From contig CALWVE010000024.1 in NCBI GenBank assembly GCA_944384905.1, positions 11,415 through 75,414 on the forward strand: 64,000 nucleotides of DNA. The letters run 5' to 3'. This document shows positions 44,999 to 53,834 of this stretch, piece by piece (the first letter of the stretch is position 1; each line of letters starts with the position of its first letter). Position numbers and translations under genes: made by a program. The notes below the pieces were generated by a model. That model ran no database searches. It was not told the DNA's origin and was given only the letters and a program-made list of their open reading frames with translations. This DNA is from an uncultured Clostridia bacterium. GTDB taxonomy: Bacteria; Bacillota; Clostridia; Oscillospirales; Acutalibacteraceae.

Positions 44999-46126
44999 TC
45001 AGGAAATATGTACGTCGATCCCGTTGACCTGCACGCCTTCGTCCGCGCGAATCAGAATATACCGCGCGCCGTCGATGACACGCGTTTCAACCAGATCGCT
45101 TCTCTCGGGGTTGACCTGAATCGTAACATCGGGCGTTTTGACTTCAAAGCGGCGGGTGTCCATCAGATTTTGGGGAATCAGCGCGCTTTCCGTGCCGAAT
45201 GCTTCGTCGAAGCGTTCTTCAAAATCGGTGACGCGGTCGGTTTCCACGCCGCAGGAAGCCAGCACATTGCGCACCGTGTTGCGCGAAACCGTGAGCGGTT
45301 CGGGGTCTTTTTCAGCTTTGTGTTCTTCGATCAGGCCGTGCAGCTGCTGGTGAACGGCTTGTACCACATCGAGGCTGCAATCATTTTGCAGCGCGTCGCC
45401 CAAAACGGATTCGAATGTTTCCTTCTGCACATCGGCCGGGGCCGGAATTTCTGTTTTAAACAGCACGTCCACCAGTTCAGGGTGATTGTCGGCCGTGCTG
45501 CGGGAATAGTACAAAGCGCCGTACAGGTTGGCGGCACGATCCTCAAACGCGGGGAAAAGGAAGCCCAGTTCCGGCGGGGATACCAGCCAGTCTGTCTGAA
45601 GGCTGCGGAATGTGTTGCCGGGAATATCGTAGCACAGCGCGGGTTTCGTTTCTTTAACCGGGCAGATGCTGCACAGTACATAAGAATAAACGGAAGAGGA
45701 AAGCTCGTCGCGCTCGCCGTCTTTGGTAAAGGCGGGCACGTCATACGGCTCGGTGGCCAGCAAAATCAAATAGCTGCCGTCCATTTGCAGCGTGTCGATA
45801 ATCCGCTGATACAAAGCCTGTGTGAAAACCGGGTCACGCAAAGCCGTATCGCGCAGCGCCATCAGCAGCTGGTGTTCTTCGCTGTTGACCACCTGCTGGG
45901 TGGAAAAAGAAAGATTGATGAGATTTTTTCCAATTGTACCCGAAAGCGTGCGGCGCAGGGTAGCGAGCATTTTTTCGGTTTCTTCGGCGGGCAATTCCAG
46001 AAACGACTGGTCAAACTGAGAGACGATTTCACGCTGGTCATTGACATAACATCCGCAAACATGGGTGATGTTGTTTTTTTCGGGCTTAAAGCGGCGGCGA
46101 ATTTCCGCAATTTCTTTTTCGTTCAT
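44999..46126 (-). CDS. Conserved hypothetical protein (DUF4317-like)
   Basis: The N-terminus MNEKEIAEIRRRFKPEKNNITHVCGCYVN matches my recollection of the DUF4317 family consensus. Function unknown. Confidence 0.65.
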   Translation of the reverse strand: MNEKEIAEIRRRFKPEKNNITHVCGCYVNDQREIVSQFDQSFLELPAEETEKMLATLRRTLSGTIGKNLINLSFSTQQVVNSEEHQLLMALRDTALRDPVFTQALYQRIIDTLQMDGSYLILLATEPYDVPAFTKDGERDELSSSVYSYVLCSICPVKETKPALCYDIPGNTFRSLQTDWLVSPPELGFLFPAFEDRAANLYGALYYSRSTADNHPELVDVLFKTEIPAPADVQKETFESVLGDALQNDCSLDVVQAVHQQLHGLIEEHKAEKDPEPLTVSRNTVRNVLASCGVETDRVTDFEERFDEAFGTESALIPQNLMDTRRFEVKTPDVTIQVNPERSDLVETRVIDGARYILIRADEGVQVNGIDVHIS

Positions 46127-46347
46127 GCTAAACCTCCTGAAACATACGGGGCGCTTTTCTATATATAAAAGATGCGACGCGGGAAATTATTGTAGCACAG
46201 GCGAAAAGAAACTGTCAAACAGGAACCGTCGAAGAAAAAAATAAAAAATTTTTTAAAAAGATGAAAGGATACGCCGCCCTCATTCGTGTTGTATGTGAAA
46301 GGGAAACAAACCCGATAAAAATCAACCGATTTCAGGAGGAAACAACC

Positions 46348-46815
46348 ATGACGATGAAAGCTTTAGCCGTTTCGATGATTTTGTCTTTGCTCACCACAAG
46401 CGGTGCAGCAGCTTACGCGGTGCAGACGCAGGCTCCGGCCGAAGCGGCCGTTCAGCCCACAGCGGTAGAACAGACAGTCGTTTGTCCGAACGATGGCGTC
46501 CCGGCACTGGACGGCACCGGTTATCAGGGCGGCCGCAGCGATGAAGACGGCAACGGTAACGGCAACGGCGGCAATGGCGGCAATGGCGGCAACGGCGTAT
46601 GTGCCAACGGCGGTGTGTGCGTAAATGAAAACTGCCCGAACGGTGGTGTTCCGGCGCAGGATGGCACGGGCTACCAGGGTGGCCGTAACGATGAAAATGG
46701 TAACGGCAACGGAAACGGCGGCAATGGCGGCGTATGCGTAAATGAAAACTGCCCGAACGATGGTGTTACGGCACGCGACGGCACCGGTTATCGCGGAGGC
46801 CGCGGCGGTAAATAA
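46348..46815 (+). CDS. Small secreted Cys/Gly/Asn-rich protein with three C-P-N-x-G-V-x-A-x-D-G-T-G-Y-x-G-G-R repeats
   Basis: ATG 46348 sits behind caggagga. The signal peptide ends AAAYA. Three repeats are separated by (GN)n spacers and VCVNENC motifs. It is 9 nt upstream of an ECF sigma gene. Confidence 0.7.
   Translation: MTMKALAVSMILSLLTTSGAAAYAVQTQAPAEAAVQPTAVEQTVVCPNDGVPALDGTGYQGGRSDEDGNGNGNGGNGGNGGNGVCANGGVCVNENCPNGGVPAQDGTGYQGGRNDENGNGNGNGGNGGVCVNENCPNDGVTARDGTGYRGGRGGK
46483..46812 (+). repeat. In-frame tandem coding repeats (~115-120 nt unit, three copies) with GGCAAYGGC micro-repeats
   Basis: gt(g/a)tgcgtaaatgaaaactgcccgaacg occurs twice nearly identically, and the ggcaacggc/ggcaatggc tracts are repeated. 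Confidence 0.8.
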
Positions 46816-46839
46816 GAAACAAAGATGAGGGAGACGTCC

Positions 46840-47325
46840 ATGCGCAGCGAATGGGAAACAGACCGCGCGATCGAGCAATATGCCGATACGGTACGGAAAA
46901 TTTGTATGCTGCATCTGAAAAATGAAGCCGATACCGAGGATATTTTTCAGACGGTGTTTTTAAAATATGCGATGTACCCCGGCTCGTTTGCCGACAGCGA
47001 GCACGAAAAAGCCTGGCTGATCCGTGTAACGGTGAACGCCTGTAAGGATTTTCTCAAAAGCTTTTTCCGCCGCAATACGGTTCCGATTGAAGAAATTCAG
47101 GAATCGCTGGTGTCGCCGCTGCCGCAGGAGCAAAGCGAAGTGCTTGAAGCCGTGCTTTCCCTGCCCGATAAATACAAGGATGTGATTTATCTGTATTTTT
47201 ACGAGGGCTATTCCGCCGTGGAAATCGGACGTCTGCTTAAGAAAAATGTCAACACAATCTATACATTGCTTTCTCGTGCAAAAGCGATTCTTAAAGAGAA
47301 ACTGGGAGGTGAGGAATTTGCGTAA
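46840..47325 (+). CDS. ECF-type RNA polymerase sigma factor (sigma-70 family, regions 2 and 4)
   Basis: Region 2 (EDIFQTVFLKY...AWLIRVTVNACKDFLK) and region 4 HTH (VIYLYFYEGYSAVEIGRLLKKNVNTIYTLLSRAK). ATG 46840 has the better RBS (gagggag). ATG 46825 is an in-frame alternative. Confidence 0.85.
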   Translation: MRSEWETDRAIEQYADTVRKICMLHLKNEADTEDIFQTVFLKYAMYPGSFADSEHEKAWLIRVTVNACKDFLKSFFRRNTVPIEEIQESLVSPLPQEQSEVLEAVLSLPDKYKDVIYLYFYEGYSAVEIGRLLKKNVNTIYTLLSRAKAILKEKLGGEEFA

Positions 47326-48202
47326 CCGGATTCAAACCGCATTCGATTCCGTTCAGGCGTCGCCCGAACTGAAAAACAAAACCCGCGATTTTCTGGCTCA
47401 CGAGCGGCAGCGCCGTTCTGTGCGTCCGGTCCGGGCGCTGGTTCCCGCGTTGTGCAGTTTGCTGCTGTTGGTTTTGGGCGCTGTGGGCTGGGGCCTGTAT
47501 CAAACGCCTGTTGCGGCCATCAGCGTGGACATCAACCCCTCTCTGGAGCTCACGGTCAACCGTTTTGACCGGGTGATCGGCGTGAAGGGCTTTAACGAAG
47601 ACGGTGAAGCCGCCGCCGCGCAGGTAGACCTCATCAACATGCGCTATGACGAAGCTGTGGAAACGCTGCTTCAAAGCGAAGCCATTTCACCGTATCTTTC
47701 TGAAGATGCTTTTGTCAGCATTGCCGTGGCCTGTGATGAACAGGAAAAAGGCGAAGCCATGCGACAGCAGGTGCAGGCGGGTACCGTCGAATGCCCCGCG
47801 GAAGTTTCCTGCACGGCGGGGAACAGCGAGGACGTAGAACAGGCGCACGAAGCCGGGCTTTCCTTCGGCAAATATCGCGCGTTTGAAGAATTGCAGGCGC
47901 TGGATCCTTCCGTAACGGCCGAAGACGTGCAAGGTATGACCATGCGCGAAATCCGCGACCGGATCAACGAACTGCTGGAAGAAGCGGGTGAAGAGCCCTC
48001 CGGCCAGGGTCAAGGTCAGGGACAGGGTTCGGGCCAAGGTCAGCAGAGTCAGGGCACCGGGCAAGGCTCGGGTCAGGGCCAGCAAGGCCAGGGGAGCGGT
48101 CAAGGCTCCGGCCAGGGTTCCAAGGGAGAAGGCAATTCGAGCGGCAAAAATCAAGGCAGCCAGAACGGGGACGGCAACCAGTACGGCCGAAACCCCGGCT
48201 GA
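47318..48202 (+). CDS. Single-pass anti-sigma factor with RsgI-like juxtamembrane domain and Gln/Gly-rich disordered tail
   Basis: TTG 47318 (or GTG 47309) overlaps the sigma stop, behind gggaggtgagg. It has a short cytoplasmic N-terminus, one TM (LVPALCSLLLLVLGAVGWGLY), the extracytoplasmic SVDINPSLELTVNRFDRVIGVKGFNEDG, which resembles B. subtilis RsgI (TIDINPSVEMALN...LNDEG), and a (GQG/GSG)n tail. Confidence 0.7.
   Translation: MRNRIQTAFDSVQASPELKNKTRDFLAHERQRRSVRPVRALVPALCSLLLLVLGAVGWGLYQTPVAAISVDINPSLELTVNRFDRVIGVKGFNEDGEAAAAQVDLINMRYDEAVETLLQSEAISPYLSEDAFVSIAVACDEQEKGEAMRQQVQAGTVECPAEVSCTAGNSEDVEQAHEAGLSFGKYRAFEELQALDPSVTAEDVQGMTMREIRDRINELLEEAGEEPSGQGQGQGQGSGQGQQSQGTGQGSGQGQQGQGSGQGSGQGSKGEGNSSGKNQGSQNGDGNQYGRNPG
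47995..48199 (+). repeat. Low-complexity GGYCARGGY coding repeats (Gln/Gly/Ser tail of the anti-sigma factor)
   Basis: Translates to PSGQGQGQGQGSGQGQQSQGTGQGSGQGQQGQGSGQGSGQGSKGEGNSSGKNQGSQNGDGNQYG. Confidence 0.8.
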
Positions 48203-48203
48203 T

Positions 48204-48240
48204 AAAAAAGTCCGGAGCATTTCTGCTCCGGACTTAATTT
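48204..48240. terminator. Bidirectional terminator between the anti-sigma gene and the Dlt-like operon
   Basis: 12-bp stem aagtccggagca / tgctccggactt, flanked by aaaaaa and aattt. Confidence 0.75.
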
Positions 48241-48308: not shown

Positions 48309-49262
48309 TTAAGCGTTTTTGACAACGGATTCGTACCGGCTGAGTGAATCGTTCCATTTGGCGTAATCCGCATCGGGGCGGTGATCGGTTAAAAGGCCCG
48401 TTTCGGTAAGGTAATCGCTAAGAAAACGCGTGACTTTGGCGGCGCCGAAATGATTGAGATGGTCGCCTTTGTCTCGGGTGTCTTCTTCCCAATTGATTTT
48501 AAGCTGTTCGTTCATCAAGTTCAGATCGATGTATTCGCATCCAATTTGATCGGCCAGATTCTGAATGCCGTTGTGGCGTTCGTAGTTCCAGTTTACGGTG
48601 CTGGGTGTGCTGAGAAAAACGAGCTTTGCGCCGTTTTCATCGCAGAATTCTTTGATTTCTGCGATGTATTTGATATTCAGTTCCGGAATTTCTGCCTTAG
48701 TTTCCGTTTTTACCATGTGGTCTTTTTTTGTGCTGGCGAGAACCCGGGCGTTATATCGATAACCTTTATAGTCGTCTGTCCAGGTGAACTTGCTTTTTCC
48801 GGTAAAATCGTGCCATCCCAAGGATTTCCAGCGGTCGTGATATTGGAATACCGAAAAGTGATCGGCCAGCTTTGCAATCGCCGCGCTGCTGTCTGAAACC
48901 GGTCGATAAATCGCATTGGTTTCCAGAATCACAATTTTGGGTGATTGCTTTTCAAATGTGCGGTGCAGCAGAACCTGCGAATAATCTAAGCTTTGTGCGG
49001 GAGAACCGCAGACATAAGACGTATATCCCGTATCTTTCCATATTTGCAGCGGGATGATGGAAGAATATGACTCACTGTCACCCAGTACCAAAACATCAAT
49101 GGAATGCTCCTTTTCTCCCAGGATACCATTGGCCGATACTTCTTCCATGCCAAATTCAGACATGTTGTTTTTCGGCTGAAAGACAAAAGACGAGGCAGTA
49201 AGTAGTCCGATCAGTCCGATGATAAACACCAGACAACGGACAATTCTTTTTGCATAAATCAT
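48309..49262 (-). CDS. Membrane-anchored SGNH/GDSL-fold protein (DltD/AlgX-like role)
   Basis: N-terminal TM anchor, block I GDSES (VLVLGDSESY) and block V DHLNH (DKGDHLNHFG). Last gene of the Dlt-like operon. Confidence 0.75.
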   Translation of the reverse strand: MIYAKRIVRCLVFIIGLIGLLTASSFVFQPKNNMSEFGMEEVSANGILGEKEHSIDVLVLGDSESYSSIIPLQIWKDTGYTSYVCGSPAQSLDYSQVLLHRTFEKQSPKIVILETNAIYRPVSDSSAAIAKLADHFSVFQYHDRWKSLGWHDFTGKSKFTWTDDYKGYRYNARVLASTKKDHMVKTETKAEIPELNIKYIAEIKEFCDENGAKLVFLSTPSTVNWNYERHNGIQNLADQIGCEYIDLNLMNEQLKINWEEDTRDKGDHLNHFGAAKVTRFLSDYLTETGLLTDHRPDADYAKWNDSLSRYESVVKNA

Positions 49263-49274
49263 GGCGAATCCTCC

Positions 49275-50876
49275 TTAAAAACCCGCATAGATGGGATCGA
49301 CCGGGATATAGCCTTTCCCATAGGCGCCGAACACCACGATTAACAGGATCAGCGCATAGTATGCGGCAAAGCGGACGACCATATTTTGTTTGGAAATCTG
49401 TTTGCGGACCTGAATATGATGTTCCTGTAAAACGCTGATGATAAACACGATACTCAGGGCAACCAAAACGATCAAACAATCGTAGCGATCGATTCCAAAC
49501 GTAAAAATGGAGCGGTCGTAAACGGTTTGAAGCGAAAAATCAGTGAAGATTTTTTGGAACATGGTAAGCCCGGCACGCAGCCCGTTCGCGCGGAAGAAAA
49601 GTTCGCCGATACATACAAGTATGCTGGTGCGGATCATCTGCATGCAGCGGTAGAAAAAGTTATTGCGGTTGATATGCAGCTTTTTGGTGATCCAGATAAA
49701 CAGCGGGTCGGCAATGTTTCCGAGCAGAATCCATGTGAAGTGATACAGACCGAAAAAGATGTAGTTCCAGCCTGCGCCATGCCACAGGCCGTTGCAGATC
49801 CATACGCAAAACAGCGCGATTGCGCCGGAAATCAGCGGTCCAAAGTGATTCCCCAGGCGTTTGCGGGCGTGGGAAGTCAGCTTTTTAAGTGGCTTCGACA
49901 TGGAGAGCGGATAGAAAATGTAATCTTTAAACCACGTTCCCAGGGTAATGTGCCAGCGTTTCCAGAATTCCGAGATGCTTTTGGAAAAGAACGGACGTTC
50001 AAAATTTTCGGGCATCTTGATTCCGAAAATCTGTCCGGTGCCGATCACGATATCCATCGTTCCCGAAAAATCCATATAGAGCTGAATGGTGTAGCAGACG
50101 GCCGATACGGCGATTACGAAACCGTCGTAGTTTGGATAATCGGAAAAAACTGTTTTAATCAGCAGATTCAGCCGGTCGGCGACGACCATTTTTTTCATCA
50201 TGCCGAAAAGGATACGCTGAGAGCCAAACATGAAGTTTTCGTAGCGGATCCGAGGCGCTTCCCAAAGCTGCTCGGCCGTATCGGAATAGCGGCAGATCGG
50301 GCCTTCCATGATCTGCGGGAAAAAGCTCATGTAAAGCGCCAGGCGTATCAAATTGCGGTCAGCCTGAATTTTACGGCGGTACACATCGAAAATATACGAG
50401 ACAGCCTGTAAGGTATAGAAAGAAATGCCGATCGGCAGAACAAAAGAGGGAATCTCAAACGTAACCGGAATATGAAGCGCGCCGAAGAGCGTGTTGATGT
50501 TTTCCGCAAAAAACGGCGTGTACTTCAAAACCAGCAAAATTCCGATATGTATTATCACCCCAAAGGCGACGACACCGCGCTGCTGCTTGAGGTATTGGGC
50601 TTTGATGGCTTTGCGTTCTTCTTTGGGTGCGGTTTCCAACAGGCGGTCACAGCCCTGCTGGATGCTCGACAGCCACACGCCGATGTGGTGAATCGAAAAA
50701 ACGGAAAACACCAAATAGGCGATCAGCTTTCCGCTGATCGCCCAGAAGAACAGGCAGCTTGAGGACAAGAGTACCCATCTGCGGAGTTTTTGCGGCAATA
50801 TGGCATACAGTCCCACGGATACCGGCAAAAAAAGCAGCAGGTATCCGAGAGAAAAGTAGGAATTGATCGCGAACAT
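49275..50876 (-). CDS. MBOAT family membrane O-acyl/aminoacyl-transferase (DltB/AlgI-like)
   Basis: Hallmark motifs FWKRWHITLGTWFKDYIFYPL and NGLWHGAGWNYIFFGLYH, with multi-pass TM topology. Confidence 0.9.
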   Translation of the reverse strand: MFAINSYFSLGYLLLFLPVSVGLYAILPQKLRRWVLLSSSCLFFWAISGKLIAYLVFSVFSIHHIGVWLSSIQQGCDRLLETAPKEERKAIKAQYLKQQRGVVAFGVIIHIGILLVLKYTPFFAENINTLFGALHIPVTFEIPSFVLPIGISFYTLQAVSYIFDVYRRKIQADRNLIRLALYMSFFPQIMEGPICRYSDTAEQLWEAPRIRYENFMFGSQRILFGMMKKMVVADRLNLLIKTVFSDYPNYDGFVIAVSAVCYTIQLYMDFSGTMDIVIGTGQIFGIKMPENFERPFFSKSISEFWKRWHITLGTWFKDYIFYPLSMSKPLKKLTSHARKRLGNHFGPLISGAIALFCVWICNGLWHGAGWNYIFFGLYHFTWILLGNIADPLFIWITKKLHINRNNFFYRCMQMIRTSILVCIGELFFRANGLRAGLTMFQKIFTDFSLQTVYDRSIFTFGIDRYDCLIVLVALSIVFIISVLQEHHIQVRKQISKQNMVVRFAAYYALILLIVVFGAYGKGYIPVDPIYAGF

Positions 50877-50877
50877 A

Positions 50878-51108
50878 TCAGGATTCCTCCTGCAGGCGGG
50901 TGATCAGTGTCCAGAGGTTTTCCGCGGAATTGAAATTATCCGGAACGATATCGACGGTGGGAATGGTGATGTCGAATTCTTCTTCGAGTTCGGCAACCAG
51001 AGAAATAATCGAGAGGGAATCAAGATAGTGCCCGTCGATCAGATCGGTGCAGGTGGTGTAATCGATTTCCGGCTGGATTTCTTCCAAAATTTCAATCAGT
51101 CTTTCCAT
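50878..51108 (-). CDS. Carrier protein (DltC/ACP-like, phosphopantetheine attachment LDSLS)
   Basis: 76 aa, acidic, with the serine attachment motif GHYLDSLSIISLV. Its stop is 1 nt from the MBOAT start. Confidence 0.85.
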   Translation of the reverse strand: MERLIEILEEIQPEIDYTTCTDLIDGHYLDSLSIISLVAELEEEFDITIPTVDIVPDNFNSAENLWTLITRLQEES

Positions 51109-51132
51109 GGTGTTTCTCCTTTTTGTTTTGTT

Positions 51133-52326
51133 TTATTTTTGGGGACAATTGAAAGGGTTTGTTTGTGTATGCGGCCGAACCGTAACGATTTGCCCGTCAT
51201 CCTGCAAGAGGACGACTTCCGGCAGATCGCGGCTCAGAAAGAGCGAAATGCCTTCCGTTGCGCAGTAAGCGCCTGTGTTTTGAAAAAGCAAAACATCTCC
51301 GATCTGTAAATTGCGCAGCGGCAGTTTTTTGACCAGAATATCGTTGACCGTACACAACGAGCCGCAGATATTCCATTCTTCTTCGGAAGCCTGCACATCG
51401 GAATCCCGATTTTGATCGCTTAATACTTGGATATAAGGGTGTTTCATCGCCATAAACTGGCCGTAATAAGCCAGCTGATGAATGCCGCCGTCGACAATCG
51501 CGTAGTTTTCCGCGTGGTTGTGTTTGGCGTCGACAACCTGGGTAAGGTAGCTGCCGCAGCTGGCAGCAATGCTGCGTCCAAGCTCAAGCGCGATGGTTCC
51601 TTTAAATTTCAGCTCATGAAGCAGGCCGGAAAATTCCCGCAGAAAAACGGCTTCGTCAAAAGAATCTCCCTGAAAATACGAAACAGGGAAGCCCGGGCCG
51701 AATTCAAGTTCTTTGGCTTGATAGCCGAAGCGTTCTTCCAGCGACTCGATAAACTGTTCCAACGTTTCGAGTTCCCGTTTGAGCCGTTTGACCGAGGTTT
51801 TCTGCGTACCGGAAAAATACTGGATGCCGCGGATATCGAGAAAAGACGAGCCGGCATAATCCCGGATGATGCGTTCAATCTCGCTTTCGTCAAAACCGAA
51901 CTGGTTGCCGCTGGTGAGGCGCAACAAAACGGAGATTTGTTTTTGATTTTCCGCCGCGGCGCGATAGAGTGTGTCAAACTGCGATACGGATTCTACCGTA
52001 TAAATGCCGATCGGCGTTTCTTCGGCGATCAGCTGCCGTATCTGTCCGGGCTCTTTGTAAACGCCCGAAAGCACGAATTTTTCGTAAGGTAGCTGTAATC
52101 TTTGGCAGATGGCGAGTTCTCCCGGGGAACAGATTTCCAATCGATCTACCAGTCGGACAACCTCTTCCAGAATAAACGTGTTGGCTTTTACGGCATAGCA
52201 GAGCTTGACATGAGCCGGCAGCGATTCGCGCAGATATTGAATGCGGCGCCGCAGTTCGGGCAGATCATACACGTACAGCGGCGTGCTTTTTTGCTGTAAA
52301 AGCATTTGAGCGGCCATGACGTTCAT
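51133..52326 (-). CDS. Fold-type III PLP-dependent decarboxylase-like enzyme (Orn/DAP/Arg decarboxylase family 2)
   Basis: PLP-lysine motif KLCYAVKANTF, C-terminal beta-barrel motifs WNICGSLCTVNDIL and NTGAY, and size 397 aa. The start overlaps the ligase stop (ATGA). Confidence 0.8.
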   Translation of the reverse strand: MNVMAAQMLLQQKSTPLYVYDLPELRRRIQYLRESLPAHVKLCYAVKANTFILEEVVRLVDRLEICSPGELAICQRLQLPYEKFVLSGVYKEPGQIRQLIAEETPIGIYTVESVSQFDTLYRAAAENQKQISVLLRLTSGNQFGFDESEIERIIRDYAGSSFLDIRGIQYFSGTQKTSVKRLKRELETLEQFIESLEERFGYQAKELEFGPGFPVSYFQGDSFDEAVFLREFSGLLHELKFKGTIALELGRSIAASCGSYLTQVVDAKHNHAENYAIVDGGIHQLAYYGQFMAMKHPYIQVLSDQNRDSDVQASEEEWNICGSLCTVNDILVKKLPLRNLQIGDVLLFQNTGAYCATEGISLFLSRDLPEVVLLQDDGQIVTVRPHTQTNPFNCPQK

Positions 52327-53834
52327 TTTTGCATCCTCCTTTCCAGCAGGACTTTTCGGTCTATTTTGCCGTTTTTGGTCAGCGGAAACGCCGGTATATT
52401 ATAGAGCGCTCCCGGCACCATATAAACGGGCAGCAGATTTCTCAGCCGGCTGTGCAGATCTTTTCGATCTGTTTCGCCGATATAAAAGCCGTAAAGCTTC
52501 GATTTTTGTTCGTCGAATACGCAGCAGCAGCGTTCAACGCCCGGCAGGCCGGAAATGGCCCGTTCAATTTCTTCCAGCTCAATGCGATGCCCCATGTGTT
52601 TGATCTGAAAATCTTTCCGGCCGCAGAAAAGCAGCTCGCCGGTTTCGGTGTATTTCCCAAGATCGCCGGTTCGGTAAATCGTTTCCGGATAGGCTGTGTT
52701 GAGCGGATTTTGCACAAAAGCCTTGGCTGTTTGTTCGGGGGCGCGATAATATCCGAGCGCGAGAGCTACTCCGCGTACGCAGATTTCGCCCACCGAACCC
52801 GGAACGCGGATGCGCCGGTTGTCGGAGTCCAGCAGAAAAACATCTTTGTTTGGGAAGGGGCATCCGATGGGAATCCCCTGGCTGTAATCACGTCTGTTTT
52901 CCAGAATGTGATAGGTACAGTTGCAGGTGATTTCGGTCGGGCCGTAAAGATTGACAAACTGTGCGTTCGGCAGATGCTCCATCCAGGTGCGCAGATGTTT
53001 GAGCGGCATCACTTCGCCGCTGAAAAGAATTTTGCACACGCTTTCGGGGCAGCGATAGTCAAGTCCGTGGAATGTGCTGATTAAGCAGAGCGCAGAAACG
53101 GCCCAGATCATCGTGGTGATTTTGTGATCGCATAACCAATCGAGCAGTTCTTTGGGGCGGGAGAAAAGCGCCTTGGGAATCACAGAAAGCGTGGCGCCTG
53201 TTTTGAGTGCGGAATAAATATCTTTTACGGAAACATCGAAATCGAATGGTGCCTGGTTGCCGATGATGTCGTTTTCCTGAATCTCGAAAAGCTCGGTGAA
53301 CGGATCGATAAACGCCAGAACCGATCGGTGGCTGACCAAAACGCCTTTGGGCACGCCGGTTGAACCGGATGTAAAGATGGCGTACAATGGGTCTGTATCG
53401 ATCATGCGCGAGCGGATGGCTGCGAGCTTTTCCGGTTTAAGCGGAGCTGTTTGAAGCTCTTCCACAAGCAGAACCGAAGCGGAAGGAAACAGCTCACGCG
53501 CGGTATTTTCATGTTCCCGGTCGGTGAGAATAAACCGGGAATTTAAAACCCCGTGCATCTGCCTGAGTCTTGCGGCGGGCAGATCGGGATTGAACATCGT
53601 ATAAAAGCCGCCGGCGTAGACAATCCCTAAAAAAGCGGTGAGTGAAGGAATCCCCTTTTCCATATACACAGCGACGGGATCGCCGATTTCTATTTCATCG
53701 GCGAGTGAAGACCCGACGCGCATACAGAATTCTTGCAAGTGGAGGAAACTGCAAGTCCCGTATTGATCTTCCACAGCTGCTTTTTGCGGAAAAGCAGCCG
53801 CGCTTTTTTCGAGATATTCCAATACATTCTTCAT
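52323..53834 (-). CDS. Amino-acid adenylating enzyme / carrier-protein ligase (DltA-like, ANL superfamily)
   Basis: A-domain core motifs FTSGSTGVPKG, NQAPFDFDVSVKDIY, FSGEVMP, NLYGPTEIT, YRTGDLG, DFQIKHMGHRIELEEIE and NGKIDRK. RBS aaaaaggag. Confidence 0.9.
   Translation of the reverse strand: MKNVLEYLEKSAAAFPQKAAVEDQYGTCSFLHLQEFCMRVGSSLADEIEIGDPVAVYMEKGIPSLTAFLGIVYAGGFYTMFNPDLPAARLRQMHGVLNSRFILTDREHENTARELFPSASVLLVEELQTAPLKPEKLAAIRSRMIDTDPLYAIFTSGSTGVPKGVLVSHRSVLAFIDPFTELFEIQENDIIGNQAPFDFDVSVKDIYSALKTGATLSVIPKALFSRPKELLDWLCDHKITTMIWAVSALCLISTFHGLDYRCPESVCKILFSGEVMPLKHLRTWMEHLPNAQFVNLYGPTEITCNCTYHILENRRDYSQGIPIGCPFPNKDVFLLDSDNRRIRVPGSVGEICVRGVALALGYYRAPEQTAKAFVQNPLNTAYPETIYRTGDLGKYTETGELLFCGRKDFQIKHMGHRIELEEIERAISGLPGVERCCCVFDEQKSKLYGFYIGETDRKDLHSRLRNLLPVYMVPGALYNIPAFPLTKNGKIDRKVLLERRMQK

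Follow-up and report, generated by a model that had tools for sequence, protein, structure and literature searches.

Why should a gene for a small secreted repeat protein stand at the head of an operon that encodes an extracytoplasmic function (ECF) sigma factor and its membrane-bound anti-sigma factor? The locus that raises this question lies in a 64,000-nt stretch of contig CALWVE010000024.1 (assembly GCA_944384905.1, an uncultured Clostridia bacterium of the Acutalibacteraceae); we refer to the whole stretch as the window, and all coordinates below are positions in it. The original prediction, made from the sequence, had left several roles for the small protein side by side: a ligand or decoy sensed by the anti-sigma factor, a product of the regulon, or a precursor that is processed. 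According to our analysis, the locus is probably an autoregulated three-gene ECF operon with an RsgI-like sensor, in which the small protein would be an envelope effector, possibly with feedback on the sensor. The three genes are as follows.

46348-46815, plus strand: small secreted repeat protein, 155 aa (open reading frame (ORF), ribosome-binding site, signal peptide, homologues).
46840-47325, plus strand: ECF sigma factor, 161 aa from the ATG at 46840; the alternative start at ATG 46825 would give 166 aa.
47318-48202, plus strand: single-pass anti-sigma factor, 294 aa, TTG start (RsgI_M match, AlphaFold2 (AF2) model).

The gene layout upholds the proposal of a co-directional and tightly coupled three-gene unit. 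The small ORF is preceded by an AGGAGG ribosome-binding site at 46334-46339. The gap of 9 nt that had been given between the small gene and the sigma gene is possible if the latter starts at ATG 46825, 9 nt past the small gene's stop. However, the start at ATG 46840, which leaves a gap of 24 nt, appears likelier, because sigma orthologues begin with MRSE and a GAGGGAG ribosome-binding site lies ahead of this ATG. The overlap between the sigma stop and the anti-sigma start stands as described: the TTG at 47318, with GGGAGGTGAGG as the ribosome-binding site ahead of it, lies 8 nt inside the end of the sigma gene, and database homologues of the anti-sigma factor begin at the same residue.

Is this arrangement a peculiarity of one genome? 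To define orthologues of the sigma factor we used a threshold of at least 54% identity, within a family set of 201 genomes and an order set of 401 genomes. Orthologues, 55-67% identical to the sigma factor of the window, are present in 11 genomes of the family set and in 30 genomes of the order set, covering 13 of 30 families. At every one of the 33 orthologous loci a small gene coding for a signal peptide and repeats lies directly upstream, and a gene for an RsgI_M anti-sigma factor lies directly downstream. The module is therefore conserved across Oscillospirales-type gut Clostridia. The three-gene order is not a matter of chance, as it recurs at every orthologous locus examined, and as homologues of the small protein itself amount to 28 clusters and 111 representatives. 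In addition, three metagenomic contigs that carry the closest relatives of the anti-sigma factor show the same gene order and window-type small proteins amid different flanking genes, and the same arrangement is found in five of seven named genomes with a window-type protein. Thus, the survey of co-occurrence suggested at the outset turned out in favor of a syntenic unit, while the view of the first-position small gene as an oddity has to be split in two. Throughout the sigma clade the small gene comes first, so the window is not exceptional; yet the second position of the sigma gene does set the clade apart from classical ECF operons.

On the sigma tree, the sigma factors accompanied by a small gene group together with 100/99 support. 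The tree does not resolve the branching within this clade, nor does it bear out that window-type small proteins represent one lineage. The sister clade consists of seven sigma factors (47-54% identity) that have RsgI_M-type partners and no small gene upstream. At these loci (L060 (G304:C1), L019, L058, L059, L061, L062 and L064) the anti-sigma tails are longer and rich in Ser, Asn and Lys, and at L060 a promoter of the same type (GCAAGGAT-N13-TCGT) is located 63 nt ahead of the sigma gene itself. Within the small-gene-bearing clade, four of the 33 small genes are incomplete, one owing to an insertion sequence (IS) element (L043), one to an in-frame stop codon (L040) and two because they run off contig ends. 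At L043 (G495:C1, ~372398-375880) an insertion with a transposase fragment (IS30-like by eye) has truncated the small gene at its 5' end, so that its promoter and signal peptide are lost, with the sigma and anti-sigma genes intact. A decayed module of another kind is seen in Candidatus Limousia pullorum (L089, DVNG01000118.1), where an intact window-type small gene is followed directly by the C-terminal half of the anti-sigma gene alone, the sigma gene and the N-terminal part of the SEAL domain being deleted.

What the sigma factor transcribes can be approached through the DNA ahead of the small gene, in which three elements are found.

46233-46259, plus strand: A/T-rich tract (AAAAWTTTTTT type) at the same position in orthologous loci, a putative UP-like element.
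46263-46287, plus strand: conserved ECF-type promoter with the -35 element GAAAGGAT at 46263-46270, a 13-nt spacer and the -10 element TCGT at 46284-46287.
46295-46302, plus strand: GTGAAAGG box, ~8 nt downstream of the -10 element; orthologues have RTGAAR(GG) at a fixed distance after TCGT.

Classical ECF promoters of Firmicutes are of the TGAAAC-N16/17-CGTA type (the Helmann-lab consensus), and the promoter of the window, ~60 nt upstream of the small gene, can likewise be read as TGAAAG-N17-CGT(G). All 11 family loci have the A/T tract, GAAAGGAT, a spacer of exactly 13 nt and TCGT(A/G)TT, and the motif is also present in most order-level loci. When a position weight matrix (PWM) built from the 11 family sites was used to scan the whole 2.19-Mb genome, the window site scored 35.4 bits and the next best site 16.1 bits. 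Similarly, the strict pattern recovered the operon's own promoter at zero or one mismatch in five other carrier genomes. Among four other matches at one mismatch, the two that were checked fall inside an antiporter gene and prfB, and we rejected them as regulon members. A relaxed pattern gave 264 matches in the genome, which we regard as noise; only the strict PWM was informative. In other words, the predicted regulon appears to be the operon itself, in which case the small protein would be its sole non-regulatory output. Being the only non-regulatory product of the promoter, the small protein is best seen as the output of the system, and out of the roles proposed originally that of a regulon product is favored, because the small gene heads the operon in all 33 loci and lies directly behind the conserved ECF-type promoter.

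The role of the third element is less clear-cut. The GTGAAAGG box probably covers the transcription start or the first transcribed bases. The RTGAAR(GG) box, kept in L009-L018 and L038-L063, resembles the -35 core (in L014 the two are alike, TGCAAG) and could serve as a second binding site or else indicate where transcription starts. Folding of the leader revealed no significant structure (z = -0.13).

By its domain content, the sigma factor is an ordinary ECF sigma factor and not a SigI-type one, in agreement with the original assignment. It matches Sigma70_r2 (E = 9.6e-9) and Sigma70_r4_2 (E = 3.1e-11) in Pfam, with no other domain, and scores 76.4 bits against the sigma70-ECF model TIGR02937, for which the cut-off is 42.9. 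All 25 NCBIfam matches listed for it are ECF-type, with no SigI model among them. Regions sigma-2 and sigma-4 only, in a protein of about 160-200 aa, are what is expected of ECF group 4, and the sigma factor of the window has just these. ECF systems are further expected to have a cognate anti-sigma gene in the same transcript and an autoregulatory promoter with an AAC-like -35 and a CGT -10 element; the coupled anti-sigma gene (8-nt overlap) and the predicted promoter (TGAAAG-N17-CGT) of the window agree with this in silico.

The nature of the sensor follows from the anti-sigma factor, for which the following parts can be distinguished.

Anti-sigma layout, plus strand (residues, AF2 model): two short cytoplasmic helices; transmembrane helix at ~38-62; SEAL domain with helical subdomain at 64-223; disordered tail at 231-294.
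47534-47539, plus strand: codons of Asn73-Pro74, the predicted autoproteolytic scissile bond in DIN/PS (the slash marks the bond), aligned to the RsgI cleavage site.
48008-48199, plus strand: Gly/Gln/Ser-rich disordered C-terminal tail ending in ...GDGNQYGRNPG, with a predicted local distance difference test (pLDDT) value below 50 and a period-39 DNA repeat.

Residues 65-190 match the Pfam family RsgI_M (PF23750) with E = 8e-27. The segment SVDINPSLELTVNRFDRVIGVKGFNEDG (residues 68-95) includes the putative cleavage site, and an alignment of 33 homologues shows no variation at D71, N73, P74 and S75. RsgI is cut between the Asn and Pro of this hairpin (PMC10556640), and chain B of PDB entry 8hep, the C-terminal cleavage product of Clostridium thermocellum RsgI1, has the aligned Pro as its very first residue. 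The AF2 model, built on the same alignment, has pLDDT values above 90 for approximately residues 41-220 and below 50 for residues 231-294. In a Foldseek search of the PDB with this model, the ten best matches were all RsgI SEAL domains (8t9n, 8hep, 8hdj, 8heq, 8her and 8u9o), with 8t9n_A giving a TM-score of 0.80 and a root-mean-square deviation of 2.1 Å. Judging by the RsgI_M match, the Asn-Pro site and the predicted fold, the ectodomain is an RsgI-type SEAL domain. The resemblance to RsgI noted earlier is thus substantiated by family, cleavage site and fold alike. The extracytoplasmic disordered region that follows the SEAL domain in RsgI systems is also there, as residues 231-294; among homologues this tail varies from 26 to 118 residues. 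Finally, the genome encodes an RseP/RasP-type protease (Peptidase_M50, 207 bits, contig C33), which might act on the anti-sigma factor. Ahead of the transmembrane helix the model has a cytoplasmic part of 35 residues with two short helices. RsgI_M was the sole Pfam family above the cut-off at E <= 1 in the anti-sigma factor, and the RsgI_N domain was not found.

The pairing of a SEAL anti-sigma factor with an ECF sigma factor had been singled out as special. It is not unique, and for the partner of an ECF-type sigma factor to carry a SEAL domain is not exceptional in itself, because a second such pair, of the SEAL-PepSY kind, is present on another contig of the same genome (C27:38781-42173, L065). 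There, a 507-aa anti-sigma factor is translationally coupled to a 199-aa ECF-like sigma factor and consists of an N-terminal segment, a transmembrane helix, RsgI_M (105.6 bits), three PepSY-like repeats and very acidic linkers. No small secreted gene is found upstream of this pair.

What kind of protein, then, is placed under such a sensor? The N-terminus of the small protein, MTMKALAVSMILSLLTTSGAAAYA/VQ (the slash marks the predicted cut), reads as a Sec signal peptide of about residues 1-24 with an AxA cleavage site and without a lipobox, so the protein is likely to be exported. The three copies of CPN(D/G)GV..DGTGY..GGR, the (GN)n tracts and the VCVNENC motifs described originally are all present in the 155 aa.

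46483-46545, 46633-46695 and 46750-46812, plus strand: three repeat units of 63 nt each, CPNxGVxAxDGTGYxGGR.

The corresponding peptides are CPNDGVPALDGTGYQGGRSDE, CPNGGVPAQDGTGYQGGRNDE and CPNDGVTARDGTGYRGGRGGK, and between the units lie (GN)n tracts and two VCVNENC motifs (GVCVNEN). The units are 79-81% identical in DNA and their differences are mostly synonymous. The ratios of non-synonymous to synonymous substitution rates (dN/dS) between units, 0.04, 0.27 and 0.34 over the 21 codons compared, indicate selection on the peptide, as far as 21 codons can tell. The protein has six cysteines, and its mature part is acidic and rich in Gly and Asn. Its AF2 model has a mean pLDDT of 43, that is, it is predicted to be disordered. 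Neither Pfam (E <= 1) nor NCBIfam gave a match, and a sequence search of the PDB found no relative. Tandem Repeats Finder (TRF) reported period-6 and period-9 arrays at 46547-46597 in the small gene; these, together with period-6 and period-39 repeats at 48005-48117 in the part of the anti-sigma gene that encodes the tail, underlie the (GN)n and (GQ/GS)n tracts. Tract lengths vary among close homologues, with anti-sigma factors of 281-294 aa and small proteins with differing spacers. The tandem repeats and the variation of tract length fit replication slippage.

Seen alone, the repeat might look like a novelty, and this is how it was first regarded. The homologues tell a different story, since relatives carry a composite unit, a calcium-type loop followed by CPNGGxxPxDGTG, and the repeat of the window is the second half of it. 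Homologues of the small protein form 28 clusters in a collection of 5.8 billion proteins, and a search of 1.84 billion representatives with the window-type profile found 111 proteins with E values down to 1e-12, 22 of which also have DxDGDG loops; the number of repeat units ranges from 1 to 4. Window-type small proteins occur in seven species-representative genomes, all Oscillospiraceae or Ruminococcaceae-type metagenome-assembled genomes (MAGs), including Ca. Ruminococcus gallistercoris and Ca. Limousia pullorum. The window type is thus a rare form of the family. In most orthologous operons, the small protein instead has repeated N[YF]VDx[DN]GDG[VI]CDN loops, which resemble the DxDxDG calcium site. 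Such loop-type proteins make up more than 1,300 clusters, many with a precomputed match to PF27309, a match shared by none of the 28 window-type homologues. Scores of the loop-type relatives against the models EF-hand_5, Excalibur, TSP_3 and TSP3_bac were all below cut-off.

The two types are linked by the 22 loop-bearing proteins among the profile matches, in which the composite unit reads FVDxDGDGVCDN-CPNGGxRPxDGTGxQxGxG. When units are aligned, the window unit corresponds to the second half of the composite one, and a (GN)n-GVCVNEN / GGNGGNGVC stretch occupies the position of the loop, with Gly or Asn replacing Asp. In BLASTP, the window protein is colinear with one composite protein across three units (E = 2e-12). 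Furthermore, nine of 120 loop-type proteins end in the core P-x-DG[ST]G, where 0.3 would be expected from shuffles. By these alignments, the window protein appears to be a derived member of the family in which the half-unit has been kept and amplified and the calcium-type loop has decayed: its unit pairs with the latter half of the composite one, the loop position is poor in Asp, and the match is colinear. A canonical calcium loop (Asp/Asn at positions 1, 3 and 5, Gly at 6) is absent from the window protein. As it keeps only the remnants DEDGNG and DENGNG (DE[DN]GNG), cation binding by this variant is uncertain. A mixed form is seen in the small gene of L040 (G435:C3:1-2837), in which half-units alternate with loops (CPADGTGFQYG... 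FIDQNEDGVCDN... RPSDGSGNQYG...); the in-frame TAA in this gene makes it either a pseudogene or an assembly error.

Taken together, these observations suggest how the system might work. By analogy with RsgI, the SEAL domain would cleave itself constitutively between Asn73 and Pro74, and the two halves of the ectodomain would stay together through a shared beta-sheet. An envelope-derived pull on the Gly/Gln/Ser-rich disordered tail, or a ligand binding to it, would separate the halves. The M50 protease of the RseP/RasP type, whose gene lies on another contig, could then cut the transmembrane stub within the membrane, and the freed sigma factor would transcribe its own operon from TGAAAG-N17-CGT. 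The output would be a Sec-exported, disordered, acidic protein rich in Gly, Asn and Cys that acts in the envelope and possibly feeds back on the sensor.

Several points weigh against this interpretation. The cytoplasmic segment of the anti-sigma factor fits no known anti-sigma domain model in Pfam, and its binding to the sigma factor is suggested by gene coupling. Autoproteolysis and regulated intramembrane proteolysis are predicted by homology and by nothing else. The PWM was trained on autoregulatory sites and may miss weaker or divergent targets, so that the single target it finds is a lower bound on the regulon. In addition, a direct hhalign comparison of the mature window-type profile with profiles of pure loop-type proteins was not significant (E = 0.39, against 0.67 for the reversed control); homology of the two types is supported by the composite intermediates and the shared operon position.

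Even as the output, the small protein need not be an effector. Once secreted, it might be mainly a regulatory partner that binds the SEAL domain or the tail, or competes for the target of the tail, and so damps the signal as negative feedback, either as RseB shields RseA in the sigma-E system of E. coli or as a multivalent decoy. We consider this possible, although on the whole rather unlikely. In its favor, the small protein is made along with the sigma and anti-sigma factors, and no other non-regulatory product is. More specific hints come from the tip of the tail. Of 89 distinct tails, 27 have the motif [QH][YWFH]x?G[RKH] among their final 14 residues, a number that shuffles would put at 0.5. 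The best anti-sigma matches of a hidden Markov model (HMM) of the window-type unit are the extreme C-termini of the nearest relatives of the window's anti-sigma factor, and one such tail end, PQDGSGHQYGKN of P0158, scores 10.1 bits, the best decoy 7.3. However, the window's own tip, GNQYGRN, reaches only 1.6 bits with this HMM, and in a six-frame scan of the genome the HMM matched the small protein alone and not the window's anti-sigma factor. Cognate pairs of tail tip and small-protein C-terminus also outscore non-cognate pairs (p = 0.003), but within-segment shuffles give 2.39 +/- 1.04 against 3.42 observed, and 19% of them reach the observed score. Because within-segment shuffling largely reproduces the signal, it is mostly due to shared composition, and we rejected the covariation as evidence of a shared motif.

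It is nonetheless tempting to speculate that the small protein serves as a multivalent mimic of the conserved tip of the sensor's tail (of the type G-x-[QH]-[YH]-G-[RK]-N), since in the closest relatives of the window the tail end PQDGSGHQYGKN is nearly one unit of the small protein. We regard this idea as improbable. Should it be true, regulated intramembrane proteolysis would gain a novel form of feedback: provided that a partner in the envelope grips the tail tip to pull the self-cleaved SEAL domain apart, the induced protein would compete for that partner and thereby reset a bacterial mechanosensor.

The opposite sign of feedback, in which the small protein is a secreted auto-inducing ligand that pulls on or binds the anti-sigma factor in a positive, quorum-like loop, seems quite improbable. 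The protein shares its operon with the putative receptor, it is predicted to be secreted, repetitive and multivalent, and its sequence diverges fast between lineages, as is common for pairs of signal and receptor. Yet a loop that produces nothing except its own ligand would serve no obvious purpose, and the promoter scans turned up no additional target. Moreover, the SEAL domain and the helical parts are well conserved while the small protein switches from one repeat type to another, a pattern that speaks against close co-evolution of this protein with a folded site on a receptor.

The remaining role proposed at the outset was that of a precursor that is processed. Its product, possibly modified, might be a Sec-dependent bacteriocin or resemble ribosomally synthesized and post-translationally modified peptides (RiPPs), released by cuts after GGR. 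Repeated units that end in GGR or basic residues, six cysteines and a unit number varying from 1 to 4 would suit such a product. We nevertheless find it very unlikely, for the flanks of the module differ between loci and share no gene for a modifying enzyme, a dedicated protease, a transporter or immunity; the mature protein is acidic and Gly/Asn-rich, whereas typical bacteriocins are cationic; and the leader is a Sec signal peptide and not of the double-glycine type. Lastly, that the small ORF is a long leader or a spurious frame in repetitive GC-rich DNA is hardly credible: despite its low-complexity, repetitive sequence and the lack of a match to any curated family (Pfam, NCBIfam), it has a strong ribosome-binding site, 111 representative homologues, between-unit dN/dS well below 1 and a signal peptide kept in every orthologue through near-complete turnover of the mature sequence, and the gene is called at the same position in independent assemblies.

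The preferred reading, an autoregulated operon with an envelope effector as its output, gains in definition when set against known systems. Its sensor is closest to SigI-RsgI, as known from B. subtilis RsgI and from RsgI1-9 of Clostridium (Acetivibrio) thermocellum. Both have a single-pass anti-sigma factor with a juxtamembrane SEAL domain, an Asn-Pro hairpin, a helical subdomain and an extracytoplasmic disordered tail, with an M50 site-2 protease in the genome. In contrast to SigI-RsgI, the partner in the window is a 161-aa ECF sigma factor, the cytoplasmic part has 35 residues in two helices without RsgI_N, the tail is not followed by a carbohydrate-binding or other module, and the first gene of the operon encodes a dedicated secreted repeat protein, which seems to be the sole output. 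Its sigma factor, on the other hand, is like those of sigW-rsiW and sigV-rsiV of B. subtilis in having only regions 2 and 4 and a translationally coupled anti-sigma factor, and its promoter, with TGAAAG at -35 and CGT at -10 spaced by 17 nt, is like the autoregulatory promoters of classical Firmicutes ECF operons as generally known. Unlike in the sigW and sigV systems, site-1 cleavage is predicted to be autocatalytic, through the SEAL domain, instead of depending on PrsW or signal peptidase; the sigma gene comes after another gene and not at the head of the operon; and no stress-resistance regulon is detectable in the genome beyond the small gene.

Three components, with an exported third protein that could modulate the anti-sigma ectodomain, also make up the sigma-E/RseA/RseB system of E. 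coli. However, RseB is a folded periplasmic sensor of lipids and lipopolysaccharide (LPS) encoded downstream, whereas the protein of the window is predicted to be disordered and is encoded upstream; the two have no relation in sequence or fold, and a regulatory role would be hypothetical here. The SEAL-PepSY anti-sigma factors (PMC10556640) are another class that bears a SEAL domain, and the one encoded in this genome beside an ECF-like sigma factor differs by its three PepSY-like repeats and acidic linkers and by the absence of a Gly/Gln tail. As for the small protein, most of its orthologous counterparts resemble calcium loops of the EF-hand-like, Excalibur and TSP3 kinds in their repeated D-x-[DN]-G-D-G-[VI]-C-D-N, and in the composites the loop followed by C-P-N recalls the ...GDxCDNCP... 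signature of TSP3. The window protein differs in having no canonical loops, and even its relatives score below the cut-offs of the models of these families.

The surroundings of the operon contain one further feature of the transcription unit and two sets of neighbors.

48208-48235, no strand assigned: GC-rich hairpin of 12 bp; it was picked up on the minus strand, where a T-run accompanies it, and lies 6 nt past the stop of the plus-strand operon.

This hairpin is likely a bidirectional terminator that closes the operon. Immediately past it, at 48309-53834 on the minus strand, a convergent Dlt-like operon (DltD-like, MBOAT, carrier protein) is found. Its adjacency is probably not functional, because in the closest syntenic contig (L074) the genes downstream of the module differ from it and its upstream region has no match to the ECF promoter. 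On the other side, a near-consensus sigma-70 promoter at 46189-46218 on the minus strand (TTGACA-18-TACAAT, TG-extended, 11 of 12 positions) points towards a divergent DUF4317 gene (44999-46126, minus strand), so that the intergenic region holds two back-to-back promoters.

According to Brogan et al. 2023 (PMC10556640), SEAL domains are found mostly in RsgI-like anti-sigma factors, some with added domains; ECF partners or an upstream secreted protein are not discussed there. Likewise, in the literature on PF27309, on PF23750 and on the combination of ECF, SEAL and a small secreted protein, we found no description of the module. What is new in this window, as read from the alignments, is the derived half-unit variant, along with the composite intermediates that tie the small protein to the main family.

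Through SEAL anti-sigma factors, as has lately been described, Gram-positive bacteria pass extracellular, probably mechanical, events on to gene expression, and the inputs and outputs of such sensors are known only for SigI of B. subtilis and the cellulosome regulators. The module described here is widespread in Oscillospirales of the human and animal gut and joins a SEAL sensor to an ordinary ECF sigma factor with an apparent regulon of one protein. It thus offers a minimal system in which to ask what pulls on a SEAL sensor that has a disordered tail alone, and how the cell profits from answering with the secretion of a Gly/Asn/Asp/Cys-rich repeat protein. The variant in the window, with the loops largely lost and the CPNGGVPxxDGTG half-unit amplified, would be a natural separation-of-function allele for the two halves of the repeat.

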